DNA of 33,691 bases from Methanobacteriota archaeon (GCA_002720275.1 PBHR01000004.1:17280-50970); one strand, 5' to 3'. Shown: positions 13,725-33,691, counted from the stretch's first letter. Numbers and translations are program-made. Notes: generated by a model from the letters alone, not told the origin.

Positions 13725-14765
13725 ATGAAGCGTAAATTAGAGAATGATGAGTCAGCACTCAGTGACGTCATTGGTATGGTGATGTTATTAGCAATGATTG
13801 TAATTGTTCTCTCATCTACAATGATAATATTACAACCTTACATTTCAGACTATGACGATAATAAAAATTGGTCTCAAGCAAAAGTAATTGCGGATCAAAT
13901 AGATGAAAGAATACGTTTAGTTGGTTCATCACCTCAAGATACGGGGTCAATACAAACATTTGAGTTAGCTTCAACCTCTATTTCAAATCTAGATAATGCT
14001 GAGTTTTGGACTATTTCTGGTGATGTTTCCGGTTTTGATGTTGTTGAAGTAGCACTATCTTCATTTAACTCTGTAAATGTTAAATCAATGAATAACACTG
14101 CAACTTACGCGACTGTAAACAATGGAGGAAATATAACAACCCACACATTAAATTTTGAAACAGATACGGGGATAGCCAATGTAAATTTTGATAGTTATGT
14201 AGACAAATTATTAATTGTGGAAATTTACAATACAAATGATATTTTAATTCATAAATTCGTAAGATTAGAACTTTCAGGAATTGGTATAGATACTGCATTA
14301 TCAACTGGGAATTTTGACATCGATTTGATGAATGGAGCAAGATTAGAAAAATTATCTGATGAAGCATATAAAGTTACAAGATATCCATCACTACGCCATT
14401 TTTCTATGCCTGATAATTCGCAACAACTTAGTTTTGTACTAGTTAATGTTGATATGAGTTTGCTTTCGGGAACATCCAGCCCATTTAGTTTACAAATGGT
14501 CTCTGATGGACCGCTGACATTATTTGATGGAGACGTAAGAAATATTAGAATGAAAATGACAAATGAAATTGATGAATCAATGACTGATAGATATATGTCT
14601 TATTGGATGGAAGATTATAATCTGAATTTAGCGTCTGGAACATTGGACACATTCGATGGTTTAGGCCCTTGGAAAAGAGTTTCTGGAATTGATGGCATAA
14701 GTATACACCCTCTTGAAAAATCAGTACTTACAGAGATTGTTCTACATCGAGTGGTGATTAAATGA
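13725..14765 (+). CDS. Archaeal type IV pilin-like protein with class III signal peptide (346 aa)
   Basis: MKRKLENDESA|LSDVIGMVMLLAMIVIVLS resembles the archaeal pilin N-terminus D..A|VS.VIG.ILLVAI. A beta-rich extracellular domain with N-x-S/T sequons follows. Confidence 0.8.
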   Translation: MKRKLENDESALSDVIGMVMLLAMIVIVLSSTMIILQPYISDYDDNKNWSQAKVIADQIDERIRLVGSSPQDTGSIQTFELASTSISNLDNAEFWTISGDVSGFDVVEVALSSFNSVNVKSMNNTATYATVNNGGNITTHTLNFETDTGIANVNFDSYVDKLLIVEIYNTNDILIHKFVRLELSGIGIDTALSTGNFDIDLMNGARLEKLSDEAYKVTRYPSLRHFSMPDNSQQLSFVLVNVDMSLLSGTSSPFSLQMVSDGPLTLFDGDVRNIRMKMTNEIDESMTDRYMSYWMEDYNLNLASGTLDTFDGLGPWKRVSGIDGISIHPLEKSVLTEIVLHRVVIK

Positions 14766-31800: not shown

Positions 31801-33691
31801 TATCGATTGCAAAATATGAAATTTCATGATTTCTAGTAATCATTTCACCAGGAGCACCCTCACTATCTTGAACCTCATAAATATCTAAACTAATTATATC
31901 ACTGTATAAATCATTTAGAGTTTCGCTATCCAAAGCACCTGTCAAAACCTGAGTTCCTAGAGCAATTTGTGAATTTTGCCTATGGATTGAAGTACCTGTA
32001 TCCATATACTTCTCAATAATATCAGCAGTATACCAATAATCTCCAACAACATAATGACTTGCATCAAATGTTTCTCCAGTGCTATCATCTACATATTCTG
32101 TAAGAACATCTCTATTAGCTGTTCTATCTTCAAAAGTAGATCTAGCTTCAACTTCAGAAGTATAATCTTCACCGATTTGTGCTTCTCCTTCATAAATTCT
32201 CCAAACATAATCATCTGTTTTTAATCCATCAGTATTGACATAACCTCTAGCAAGTGCTAAAATTCCTTGATTCGTTGTTTCTTCTGTCCATTCATAAACT
32301 TCAAACATTCTATCTTTTGCTAATTCTTGAGTTAATTCTCGAGTTACCAAATGAAATTCATCATATTCATCTTGGTGCATGTGTTTTAAAAGAGTAGATT
32401 TGAATTCTTTTGAATAATCATCACCATTACCACCATGTACAACATCTCCAATTCCAATTCTAATAATAAACATTGCAACAGTATCATCTTGACTTCTTGA
32501 AAGCAACATATTACCTGCAGTAGGAATACCAGTCTGGAAGTTATCCGCAACTGTAGGGTGTTGTCCTTGAGTTAATGCTTGGAAACCATAATCCCACCAA
32601 GAAACAAATGCGGGTTTATCTGAAAATTTCATTAGACATTTTTCTAATTCTGAGTCCCAAGTACCGTCCATTTCATTCTCACAAACTAAACTATCGGTAA
32701 CGCCATCATGGAATTGATCTTGTTGTGCAAGCCAATCATACGCTGAATTCCAATAATAATCATTAAAACCCGGACCAAATGAATTCATGAACCAATAACC
32801 CTGAATATCTTCATAAGCAGTTCCATCAACTAATTTTGACCATCTTAAAAAGTCTGGAATTAAATTATATAATTCTTCATCTACATCAGCAGCTTTTTCA
32901 CTTCCTCTAGGGATTGCAGCATCCATACCATATGTTGCGTGTTGAGAAAATACCATGATAAAAATCATGAAAATTGCAACAAATCCTGGATTTCTAAAAA
33001 ATGTTTTTCTTCCTGATTTAAATCTAGCACTTGGAGTATTAATTCCCATCCTTCTCCATTGTTTAACAAGTTCATCCCAACCAGAAATTTTCCATAACCA
33101 TGCAAAGGCTCCTGCACCTACAATAGCCATTACTGGAGTTGCATTGTATACAAACCTGCCAGCATTCCAAGCCATATATGAAGCAAGTAAAACCCAGACT
33201 GCCAAAACTAATTCAGGCAGTTTTCGATGCCTTAAACCATCCCATGTCAATCCAAGCCCTCTACATAATGCAGCAATAAATACAAAGGCACCAAAACTAC
33301 CAAACAACAATCCTCTAGATGGCGCTTGAGCTTCGGCAATAGTTCCAAAAATCTTATTCTGTGAAAAATATCCTCCACCAGTAAATAAAGTAGCACCTAA
33401 GTCTGAATACTCAAGTACCCACTGAAGCCATAATAAGAATAATGGGAACAGCACTAAAACACTAACTGTACCAATTACCATTAACCATGGCTTATCTCTA
33501 GCAGAACAAACAATATAACCTGAAATTACAATTAATCCGGTGATATAGAACATTGCTTGGAATTCACCATTGAGCAATAATCCTAATGCAGGATGCATAT
33601 AGAACGGTAATGCTGTTAACCAAAGAGTCAAGAGCATTGTTATAGTAAGTACAGTAATTGTCATACTATCTCTTCTTCTAAATAAATTAAA
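25847..33691 (-). CDS. aglB: Giant AglB/STT3 oligosaccharyltransferase with ~1800-aa extracellular extension (5' end outside window)
   Basis: Multiple TM helices, a TIxE motif (TIAE, 33332-33343), the conserved RF in AGRFVY, SWWDYG (WWDYG at 32585-32599) and TVADN. After VKILKYY (~31250) come carboxypeptidase-regulatory/SdrD-B-like and CARDB-like beta modules and a terminal TM helix. The frame is open to the window edge (FNLFRRRDS-M), so 33664 is not the true start. Confidence 0.92.
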   Translation of the reverse strand, partial: FNLFRRRDSMTITVLTITMLLTLWLTALPFYMHPALGLLLNGEFQAMFYITGLIVISGYIVCSARDKPWLMVIGTVSVLVLFPLFLLWLQWVLEYSDLGATLFTGGGYFSQNKIFGTIAEAQAPSRGLLFGSFGAFVFIAALCRGLGLTWDGLRHRKLPELVLAVWVLLASYMAWNAGRFVYNATPVMAIVGAGAFAWLWKISGWDELVKQWRRMGINTPSARFKSGRKTFFRNPGFVAIFMIFIMVFSQHATYGMDAAIPRGSEKAADVDEELYNLIPDFLRWSKLVDGTAYEDIQGYWFMNSFGPGFNDYYWNSAYDWLAQQDQFHDGVTDSLVCENEMDGTWDSELEKCLMKFSDKPAFVSWWDYGFQALTQGQHPTVADNFQTGIPTAGNMLLSRSQDDTVAMFIIRIGIGDVVHGGNGDDYSKEFKSTLLKHMHQDEYDEFHLVTRELTQELAKDRMFEVYEWTEETTNQGILALARGYVNTDGLKTDDYVWRIYEGEAQIGEDYTSEVEARSTFEDRTANRDVLTEYVDDSTGETFDASHYVVGDYWYTADIIEKYMDTGTSIHRQNSQIALGTQVLTGALDSETLNDLYSDIISLDIYEVQDSEGAPGEMITRNHEISYFAIDTRLYPMGGGAYSDSNYNRGNPTGIFYAPTILSGQNPDHFMDTVYETQRGSESIIERTAEDFNEQYKMDVLRSQSGGDVEVIQLVDVRYDHTEAFYDTMLARAYIGYGAADLGLTDYSGVISASPKPLLSSSYSGTPESVLESAWPLPGAMMNHFVISNWYDERGNYDTFGLGEANFGVKILKYYAGAEVCGTVSVPELDTPIAGATLLVERDGFSGEGVEDLDARTYWIPIGTTTTDSDGNYCFTAPAGRIRVTALTGEFDSSVDLMTIQSGELDIYSMNIDIIGQNPGERVVNPITGLLSEVSGMMWLGENEINVTANQAERISTTPLEAVNIELETSSASGVVKWVGEGEFDGLPLVETDFVLQNLWNDEISYDVSTINKTVSGEDLVISGVGTAVYSEHEGIIESVMELQVTDFTGNYSRRLQVGQSYTGNGTWSGQGVLDANWVEGDNISACENSTVAEGENICSEGSGKYLINGTAVGSGRFTSDVVTEFTNYLTNATFEAGGRFVGTGTFEGEATYTGIGDYSGEMVIAGSFYANDIAPGEYKMYAVFNNGRTSDVIEKITVGLDGSQGLDLSIAGLKVSGIISDEEGNSLNTTVEIIDLDLDSDECTEINLNEGIWVDESGSLFSPGVTCLRFSSGEEGNVSIGPLSPGNYSVRVDLDGDAHYELNTTLVEEDQGFSFDGEILDHGDVEFTISPAVRNETTPNQPDIIDVNDILVSFTSVENGDVINATSNESGAIFAELPLGDWIMKSRTGDNLLLWSEFSLEQEDLNLDLFEFSKAVSINGYVANIVTDVENGTQVPQPLTSLPVNFRSGSIEVIVETNEDGEFELELPSGMEFDVTTLTPNNMVAAKHVNISADMENVNLIINEKLSLSYNYAGRVILNPNNVTYDNKIPDFENFEVFAEYVGTQGDQTLEMFMGVTWVSTVDSDGRYDFVLPTGNYSITVSEEMLGVPETILSANQSVGTTIEALNWTVDAFPAPVTVQIRTFIDGGDELFENGTPVSIDFRLIPAGINQETINVTSEMFTEDGILEMDLSFGQYYLEMDVQNVKNGSEFDTLFAITPDPISIGVSGIEDTIDLVLQSLWKVDIEIKEQNFAPAENVTVVFDYTDSDNFLLDLRMESDSNGTILDYVPAGNYTVTIGPYDVDGTTQSFRALVYIDSNSENRTFEWRTLEVANLNLTLFELGKITNYSLLKGVSLTAVSNDGLGEVTLPLSNQTAMVSAQLYPGDWSLKLNYTDEFNGVRWILEDYALGDLSENETITADIELSRYVEISGNVYWDFNEDGEYQIGEELEESEVKLDSDGFESLNMTTGSDGEWSFYVPANNNYSINVSRLGFTYNDTLIVEVENTSINKEDLDVSLDADNVFVSGKIDIQYGFESISDDIITDMSVELIPAADEGYERENVEISISVNGDGEIVWNATVAPGKWVFHAEAPSFHMVVYDAFEAEIIDGGEHNTTIKAGGYLPISTRWTDFSGDERDIITLESTNSTITDLVPLTLTLNDAKWNITVSETAEIWLLPAGSLQISGEFTALEMEMEMEYIGDTISGAYPPGFAEDGSLAVVTSAEAVVEFNRVLTHDVEFSITQIISNNEIIDYVEDEMINATIRDLNGDGITDEYYDIEVSIDITYAGNLASENYTFMASVSGSDKDDWLVEFEVGDTFEEIKNMSFGISESPSNGELLIKIKLPNGENSISYDTGHNIRIIATSTTGHSSNFDLKVHIPQDYSIEATGPDVVGMTAGGGTTAFDIKVDNLGNGDDNVFFEIDSSELPDGWSVSEPLSRVIPANGTSDVGFTVTMPEFTFEGSYNIVVNVTSESGSMVPVNVLVQVAEANLRMDTPSMGPGGGIIHQPVDFSILVHNDGLISAEGVTVTGYIEELNITAVSQPITILPESNETITVLFNTDQIDAGEYKFTFTIDAGETPLVENPEPVVLNQVKFTADNEAKQPNIVPIIIVLIFAFGIYSFVKSRRTGSGPGF

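Follow-up and report, generated by a model that had tools for sequence, protein, structure and literature searches.

Marine Group II archaea, the Poseidoniales, are among the most abundant archaea of the surface ocean and are uncultured, and their envelope and particle attachment are poorly understood. Archaeal pilins are substrates of the oligosaccharyltransferase AglB in other archaea (PMC5131992), and the ATPase/TadC modules of euryarchaeal clade-2 pili can use pilins encoded in trans, the variable-length minor pilin being prone to duplication (Makarova et al. 2016, PMC4858521). For Marine Group II itself, the accessible text of the genomic papers is confined to archaella, to genes for thrombospondin-like and flotillin proteins and to 'nutritional' S8 peptidases (PMC6461757, PMC6336850, PMC6864105), S8 enzymes being treated in the last as nutritional exopeptidases. 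Here we analyze a 33,691-nucleotide stretch (the window) from a Methanobacteriota archaeon (GCA_002720275.1, PBHR01000004.1:17280-50970), in which genes for AglB, a subtilase, a beta-helix surface protein and a STAND regulator converge on three pilin-like genes. The genome is 1.8 Mb in size, 82% complete and 34% GC, and the window lies on its contig C4.

The initial annotation proposed that the seven genes form one module that glycosylates, processes and displays surface structures under a ligand-sensing regulator. We consider it likely, on the evidence below, that the region is instead a vertically inherited, order-wide stretch of the Poseidoniales core genome, rich in envelope genes and composed of separable units rather than one dedicated system. 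The units would be the pilin cassette pil1-pil2-pil3; an HTH-STAND-TPR regulator beside an anchored beta-helix/Ig protein, with a membrane subtilase just upstream, an arrangement specific to the order and kept in every genome searched; and the only oligosaccharyltransferase of the cell, which would carry out general N-glycosylation. Every part is of a known kind (AglB/STT3, S8 subtilase, STAND-TPR regulator, clade-2 pilins in trans), and there is no new kind of machine. We found no description of the block, the giant AglB or the pilin cassette in the accessible text of the Marine Group II papers, whose supplements may list the genes, and our literature search returned no paper that treats AglB together with Poseidoniales and none on DUF7289, DUF7266, DUF7287 or DUF7288. 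New here are the operon context of the pilin genes outside the order, the negative adjacency tests, the glycosylation sequon statistics and a second STAND/beta-helix pair.

Gene order across the Poseidoniales

The genes of the window that concern us are the following.

13725-14765 (+): pil1, 346 aa, first of the coupled triplet; type IV pilin-like, with a DUF7289/Pilin_N-like N-terminus
14762-17005 (+): pil2, 747 aa, large pilin-like protein; overlaps pil1 by 4 bp
17002-17478 (+): pil3, 158 aa, small pilin-like protein, DUF7266-like; overlaps pil2 by 4 bp
17501-20023 (-): STAND, 840 aa, HTH-STAND NTPase-TPR regulator; convergent with pil3 across a 22-bp gap
20085-24518 (-): 1477-aa surface protein with a signal peptide, right-handed beta-helix region, Big_7/Ig-like domains, a C-terminal membrane helix (1377-1395) and a cytoplasmic tail of ~80 aa
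24583-25809 (-): subtilase (S8), 408 aa, membrane-anchored, with intact catalytic motifs
25847-33691, the window end (-): AglB/STT3, the 3' 2614 codons of a 3250-codon gene that runs past the window
12894-13703 (+): MBL-fold hydrolase, a conserved neighbour that abuts STAND wherever the triplet is missing
7014-12722 (-): 1902-aa acidic secreted protein with weak TSP3/CglD-like repeats, in the same conserved stretch
2688-3695 (-): GT2 glycosyltransferase (68 bits), 10 kb away

The seven genes and their gaps (22 bp convergent, then 61, 64 and 37 bp) are exact by open reading frame (ORF) coordinates, the 4-bp overlaps that couple pil1 to pil2 and pil2 to pil3 are present as first annotated, and the GT2 gene was likewise found nearby.

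To place the locus we compared 61 genomes (that of the window and 60 relatives, in three families, f1 to f3, and 23 genera) and fetched 79 Poseidoniales loci around STAND, counting in each tally only those with sufficient flank. The 79 loci with the same block are recorded as Candidatus Poseidoniales, Poseidoniaceae or Thalassarchaeaceae, and gene order is kept well beyond close relatives, through the whole order. Ten genomes from the three families share the order o150 / 1902-aa protein / MBL / (pil1-pil2-pil3) / STAND / 1477-aa protein / S8 / AglB / purD / x553, with CarS following purD in nine of them, on the plus strand in the three f1 genomes that have it and on the minus strand in six f2 and f3 genomes. 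Immediately upstream of STAND, 77 of 78 loci have the beta-helix protein and the remaining one a partial match at a distance of 1.5 kb; the block includes S8 in 53/53 and AglB in 50/50. Downstream of STAND, pil3 follows in 61 of 69 loci, the MBL gene follows directly in seven with all else unchanged, and neither is found in one; all three pilin genes are present in 49/49. Two contigs that bear the archaeal block are filed under bacterial metagenome-assembled genome (MAG) names, probably through binning errors, and one of them is the locus in which STAND is followed by neither pilins nor MBL.

Conservation of this order is shared by genes outside the proposed module. Upstream of AglB, purD is separated from it by 69 bp in this genome, and the 1902-aa protein is equally colinear across families. 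At one control locus of unrelated genes from the same genome, 13/17, 10/17 and 11/17 genes were colinear in genomes drawn from the three families (a 7.6-kb contig held 6/17), and at a second the figures were 8/12, 6/12 and 8/12 (a 13.4-kb contig held 4/12). Because Poseidoniales genomes are thus broadly syntenic, adjacency alone is no proof of functional coupling, and because purD and the MBL-fold hydrolase, which have no envelope role, and the control-locus genes are just as colinear, synteny of the block carries little weight.

The tight spacing of the genes is likewise ordinary for the genome. By naive ORF calls, same-strand gaps have a median of 21 bp and are at most 70 bp in 82% of 812 pairs, and convergent gaps are at most 25 bp in 79% of 247 pairs. 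Across 11 genomes the intergenic distances are 20-129 bp for AglB to S8, 64-300 bp for S8 to the beta-helix protein, 17-86 bp for the beta-helix protein to STAND and at least 68-238 bp for purD to AglB. These distances are compatible with transcription units such as AglB-S8 and beta-helix-STAND, of which spacing gives no proof. A scan for sigma-70 promoters and intrinsic terminators gave no excess over shuffled sequence (56 against 56.7 and 7 against 6.1, respectively), the sigma-70 model being unsuited to archaeal promoters, and the oligo-T runs and TATA-like words seen by eye in three intergenic gaps are uninformative at 34% GC.

The STAND regulator, the beta-helix protein and the subtilase

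The STAND protein has a Walker A motif (GIAGIGKT200), a Walker B motif (LIVIDD282) and a TPR_12 match of 59.5 bits (cut-off 30.1). Its MalT-like TPR region reaches 33 bits against a cut-off of 45, and AAA_16 (29.0, cut-off 32.6), nSTAND6 (19.3, cut-off 27.7) and an N-terminal HTH_Crp_2 (20.7 against 27) are also below threshold; a homologue at ~26-27% identity passes the ATPase_2, AAA_16 and nSTAND6 cut-offs. It is the best conserved gene of the block (84-97% identity within the genus of the window, 46-58% in other genera) and has a single-copy orthologue in 61/61 genomes. In a class-wide sample it was found in 75/75 Poseidoniales and in 0/43 genomes of family f4, with only distant matches in f5, and the wider family occurs in 69 of 237 non-Poseidoniales genomes. 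We know of no studied member of this STAND family.

The subtilase gives a Peptidase_S8 match of 156.9 bits against 21.8, with the triad motifs DTG119, HGT156 and GTS328 and one N-terminal membrane helix; no I9 propeptide was detected, and an orthologue is present in 61/61 genomes. Outside the order, no S8 catalytic domain was found in any of 40 STAND-homologue loci (38 genomes, 3.4-18.5 kb fetched), and we rejected a STAND-S8 pairing as a family-wide feature. In one f5 genome, from a sister lineage in the same class, the STAND homologue is a divergent neighbour of an S8-CARDB-Big_7-PKD protein.

For the 1477-aa surface protein, the term 'beta-helix' holds at the level of the family but not for the window protein itself, in which Pfam Beta_helix (PF13229) has no match. 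Two of six orthologues reach 40 bits with this model against a cut-off of 25.9, and the nearest Atlas clusters (score 0.98) carry PF13229 in 69-78% of their members. A sequence search of the PDB returned no matches. The cytoplasmic tail contains the motif DPYAWAK in most other genera and GWxWD..W(V/I)xD in all nine genomes outside the genus of the window in one alignment and all 12 loci in another; the genus of the window keeps just YAWA and has its C-terminal motif replaced (tail at 20085-20330, minus strand). Outside this genus the tail ends in GWxWD..NQWVPDPNY, in which a likeness to half a WW domain is an impression by eye.

The genome holds a second, paralogous pair, in which a 727-aa HTH-STAND-like protein (E = 9e-16 to that of the window) is encoded 59 bp upstream of a 1598-aa beta-helix/PKD/Big_9 protein (contig C20, 2536-9575 on the minus strand of the fetched segment). 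This pair is adjacent in four of five other genomes checked, and in the fifth its genes are ~4 kb apart on opposite strands. A second MBL gene adjoins a 525-aa paralogue of STAND, but the two MBL proteins share just the generic metal-binding motif region (E = 5e-05, 67 aa), and an MBL hydrolase with a STAND-like gene was rejected as a recurring pair.

These observations bear on a narrower module, in which STAND and the membrane-anchored beta-helix/Ig protein would form a sensor-regulator pair, possibly with processing by the subtilase, and AglB and the pilins would be mere neighbours. The short beta-helix to STAND gaps, the adjacency of the pair in nearly all loci, the conserved tail motifs, the second pair and the divergent S8-Big_7-PKD neighbour in the sister lineage speak for it. 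Against these stand the general synteny of the genomes, which weakens evidence from adjacency, the replaced tail motif in the genus of the window, the slight similarity of the two beta-helix proteins of the genome (E = 0.001 over 88 aa), and the lack of S8 at STAND-homologue loci elsewhere, where a beta-helix protein was sought solely by tblastn with the 1477-aa query and not by family. On balance we regard such a pair as possible but doubtful, and hold with the same reserve the mechanism that it implies, whereby the surface protein would sense the exterior and its conserved tail would be read by the STAND/TPR protein to change transcription. Less probable again is a broader scheme in which the Poseidoniales would possess paralogous signalling pairs of a one-pass receptor and a STAND protein, the beta-helix/Ig protein sensing particles or polymers and its tail (DPYAWAK ... 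GWxWD..WVPDPNY) switching the regulator, and in which the copy in the window would be tied to the subtilase and a self-glycosylating AglB so that the block would control envelope remodelling.

The pilin cassette and its probable pilus machinery

The label 'pilin-like', proposed for the triplet in the initial annotation, holds at the level of the family; the proteins of the window themselves fall below the Pfam pilin thresholds (E = 0.02-0.12). Orthologues pass Pilin_N (28.1 against 25.2), DUF7289 (28.3 against 27) and, for one pil3 orthologue, DUF7266 (28.0 against 27.6), while the N-terminal DUF7289 matches of pil2 orthologues are under the cut-off (best 23.8 bits); homologues outside the Poseidoniales reach 54 bits with DUF7289 and 32.0 with DUF7266. 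Each protein has a single N-terminal hydrophobic helix behind a charged stretch (residues 18-36 in pil1 and 21-39 in pil2), and all three have an N-terminus like a class III signal peptide (charged residues, then a small residue and ~20 hydrophobic ones), judged from this helix and from motifs conserved across orthologues. In pil1 orthologues the conserved motif is ..AVSEV(I/L)GVVMLLAMV... A model of pil3 (predicted local distance difference test score of 84) has a helix of ~70 residues (5-74) followed by seven strands; Foldseek found nothing in the PDB at E <= 0.001, and a wide search with VIA-align gave no pilin match, only long-helix matches at Z < 6.

The distribution of the triplet sets it apart. 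We found pil2 in 47 of 61 genomes (f1 36/36, f2 2/2, f3 8/22), and the 14 that lack it come from five genera whose genomes are small (1.3-1.6 Mb). The genome of the window has three type IV pilus-like ATPase loci: the archaellum operon, a small TadA/TadB/TadC-like set, and a PilB3_C-type ATPase with platform proteins. Of the 47 genomes with pil2, 46 have an orthologue of the TadA-like ATPase (at least 70% identity), the sole miss being a genome 78% complete, and 45 have one of the PilB3-like ATPase (at least 74% identity); neither occurs in any of the 14 pil2-negative genomes. Three genomes that lack the triplet retain the archaellum ATPase, so the distribution of the triplet does not follow that of the archaellum. 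The pilin triplet is thus a separable cassette, present or absent as a unit, in step with pilus ATPase loci elsewhere.

To look beyond the order, we searched a profile of pil3 orthologues over 301 genomes sampled across the Thermoplasmatota. Weak homologues were found in eight non-Poseidoniales genomes, and seven of the resulting loci were fetched. Three of the seven have a same-strand PilB3-type ATPase 0.03-1.3 kb downstream, 51-56% identical to the ATPase on contig C35 of our genome, and in two of these a DUF7289-like gene overlaps the pil3-like gene. One operon is complete, with a DUF7289-like protein (347 aa), a pil3-like protein (159 aa), a T2SSE+PilB3_C ATPase (751 aa), two T2SSF proteins, a DUF7288-like protein (152 aa) and a 128-aa gene product. 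Two further loci have a pilin pair and no ATPase in range, and another contig is just 1.8 kb long. This context agrees with the clade-2 systems as set out in PMC4858521.

Taken together, these data suggest that pil1-3 would most likely be accessory or adhesive (minor) pilins, supplied in trans to the PilB3/PilC-type machine on another contig. The genes may have been relocated in the ancestor of the order from beside such a machine to the MBL/STAND junction, and would be translationally coupled and retained or lost together with the PilB3/PilC-type machinery. An alternative is that the triplet serves the TadA/TadB/TadC-like machine, with its 417-aa ATPase on contig C5. No pilin genes flank that locus, and its ATPase co-varies with the triplet slightly better than the PilB3-like enzyme; however, the homologues of the pilins outside the order adjoin PilB3-type ATPases and not TadA-like ones, and we consider service to the Tad-like machine unlikely.

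Two of these loci have features of their own. The Tad-like locus (TadB/TadC/TadA-like, 7923-10491 on the plus strand of the fetched segment) encodes an ATPase 70-82% identical across the order and was not found in the same 14 triplet-less genomes; the three genes directly before it look RPA-like by eye and have no Pfam match. Directly upstream of the PilB3-like ATPase, contig C35 encodes a 1997-aa protein that combines F5/8 type C (discoidin) and SPRY domains (60-6053 on the plus strand of the fetched segment); in relative G018 it is not found at that position. Contig C35 and the part of contig C4 past the window end contain many ambiguity codes, with X in their translations, which suggests a population consensus assembly.

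The cassette and the two non-archaellum pilus motors separate larger-genome from streamlined lineages and would provide a marker of attachment potential better resolved than the archaellum alone.

AglB, the block as a whole and comparison with known systems

The complete AglB ORF on the contig is 3250 aa long, with an STT3 match (PF02516) of 52.5 bits against 24.5 (63.6 in the genome search) and WWDYG at residue 1001. Candidates for the acidic DxD-type motif of the first external loop are D.D at 451 and 546, in the segment past the window where the contig has ambiguity codes. The window-truncated product scored 60.3 bits against the 450 required by NCBIfam TIGR04154 (archaeosortase-A-associated STT3). 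After WWDYG comes an extracellular extension of ~2200 aa with CarboxypepD_reg-like domains and a C-terminal membrane helix. The protein is 3124-3401 aa long in 11 genomes, and in a survey of the Thermoplasmatota the Poseidoniales have the longest STT3 ORFs (~3000-3280 aa), ORFs of 2000-2850 aa being common across the other families. At 20 giant-AglB loci outside the order we found no S8 domain, no homologue of the 1477-aa protein and no full STAND neighbour, and a giant AglB-S8 pairing across the phylum was rejected (0/20).

The first ~428 residues of AglB (contig C4, 51595-52878, minus strand) contain about seven predicted membrane helices before STT3, and all 20 alignments to non-Poseidoniales giant AglBs start past this segment (residue 429 in 19 cases, 406 in the other). 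An Atlas search with the N-terminal 428 aa of an orthologue was uninformative (best score 0.83). In relatives G018 and G059 AglB aligns in two pieces, the STT3-bearing frame of G018 being 1603 aa, which may reflect a frameshift, an assembly error or a split gene.

The genome has no STT3 match besides AglB, which is on that ground a general enzyme. We counted sequons (N-x-S/T) against shuffled sequences to assess its possible substrates. In the genome of the window AglB itself has 51 sequons where ~25 are expected, and all nine near-full-length orthologue alignments give z of 2.3-11.3; enrichment extends to the 1902-aa protein (z of at least 2.9 in 7 of 11 orthologue alignments). Sequons are at chance in the pilins, the beta-helix protein, the subtilase and STAND, and those of pil2 are depleted in the window (3 against 11.7 expected), its orthologues being near expectation. 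Nothing in these counts thus marks the pilins as preferred substrates of AglB. The sequon-rich extension is probably itself a glycosylated envelope component, and AglB may carry its own heavily glycosylated surface rod (25847-32500, minus strand).

How far, then, does the region behave as one system? The description of it as an envelope and surface region stands, its genes being cell-surface genes whose order is kept across the Poseidoniales, but that of a single module glycosylating, processing and displaying pilins under one regulator is not supported, since the synteny is uninformative, the triplet is independent of the rest, AglB is general and neither STAND nor AglB is paired with S8 outside the order. 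That all seven genes nevertheless form one envelope/adhesion assembly system, with AglB glycosylating pilins and surface proteins, the subtilase maturing them and STAND in control, is very improbable despite their order-wide co-localisation, the membrane or surface nature of every product but STAND and the known role of pilins as AglB substrates in other archaea, because the triplet is absent from 14/61 genomes and 7/69 loci in which the other four genes remain, its homologues outside the order belong to PilB3/PilC operons, AglB is single-copy and general, pilin sequons are at or below chance, AglB-S8 and STAND-S8 adjacency are 0/20 and 0/40 there, and purD is linked as tightly as the rest.

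Several observations nonetheless weigh against reading the region as separable units with a PilB3-type partner for the pilins. Throughout the radiation of the order the four minus-strand genes keep their adjacency and common orientation, and the AglB to S8 and beta-helix to STAND distances in 11 genomes are compatible with co-transcription. The second STAND-like/beta-helix pair, with its adjacency in most genomes checked, and the S8-bearing neighbour of the f5 STAND homologue point the same way. For the pilins, co-variation with the ATPases spans only five small-genome genera, so that a single loss or a few losses may account for it, and it does not discriminate between the PilB3-like and the TadA-like machine. 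Finally, neither this genome nor any of five relatives that are 91-97% complete gave a match to Peptidase_A24 (PF01478), in a search that gave a signal in 12 of 14 control genomes. The archaellum and pilus loci are present in this Peptidase_A24-negative genome, and their ATPases also in three of the five negative relatives (G018, G028 and G034); in these archaea the class III signal peptidase either has diverged strongly or belongs to a different family.

Among the other neighbours, the 'giant Ca-binding protein' of the initial annotation is present as the large acidic 1902-aa protein (20% D+E), but the calcium-binding label is weak, as TSP3_bac (E = 0.0028) and the CglD-like model (46.6 bits against 400) are both below cut-off. 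Two gene fusions are unusual: the window also holds a 330-aa ORF that fuses pyroglutamyl peptidase (C15) to NUDIX (4306-5298, minus strand), and on contig C4 beyond it a 762-aa ORF fuses peptidase M28 to a ZIP zinc transporter (13790-16078 on the plus strand of the fetched segment). The block brings together the main envelope candidates that are universal in the order, namely an AglB of ~3200 aa with its sequon-rich extension, two giant surface proteins, an anchored subtilase and a dedicated regulator.

Each part can be set beside a studied counterpart. The subtilase resembles the mycosins of type VII secretion systems in its membrane-tethered S8 domain, its intact D/H/S triad and the lack of a detected I9 propeptide; unlike them it has an N-terminal anchor and no secretion-system genes nearby, and its score with the mycosin model (122.1 against a cut-off of 278.75) places it outside that family. 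STAND shares with MalT/AfsR-like proteins a P-loop NTPase with Walker A and B motifs, the sub-threshold MalT-like TPR region and TPR_12 above its cut-off, whereas its winged HTH is N-terminal and weakly detected, and its family is widespread in the Thermoplasmatota.

AglB is like other archaeal AglB/STT3 enzymes (GT66) in its STT3 membrane domain, WWDYG motif, single copy and setting among large surface-protein genes. Studied AglBs are roughly 600-1000 aa long; the Poseidoniales protein differs from them in its 3250 aa, the sequon-rich extension of ~2200 aa, the C-terminal anchor and the multi-helix N-terminal segment of ~428 aa, and the locus differs from agl-type neighbourhoods in having no adjacent agl glycosyltransferase genes.

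The pilin cassette, finally, has its closest counterpart in the PilB3/PilB4-type clade-2 pili of Haloferax, which it resembles in its pilin-like N-termini, the DUF7289 and DUF7266 matches of its orthologues and the place of its homologues in PilB3_C/T2SSF operons of other Thermoplasmatota. It differs from clade-2 pili in that no Peptidase_A24 prepilin peptidase is detectable in this genome and the five relatives, and in being a three-gene set with a 747-aa middle member, held order-wide at a fixed site between the MBL hydrolase and STAND. With Haloferax PilB3, as described in PMC4858521, it shares an ATPase/platform module encoded apart from the pilins.

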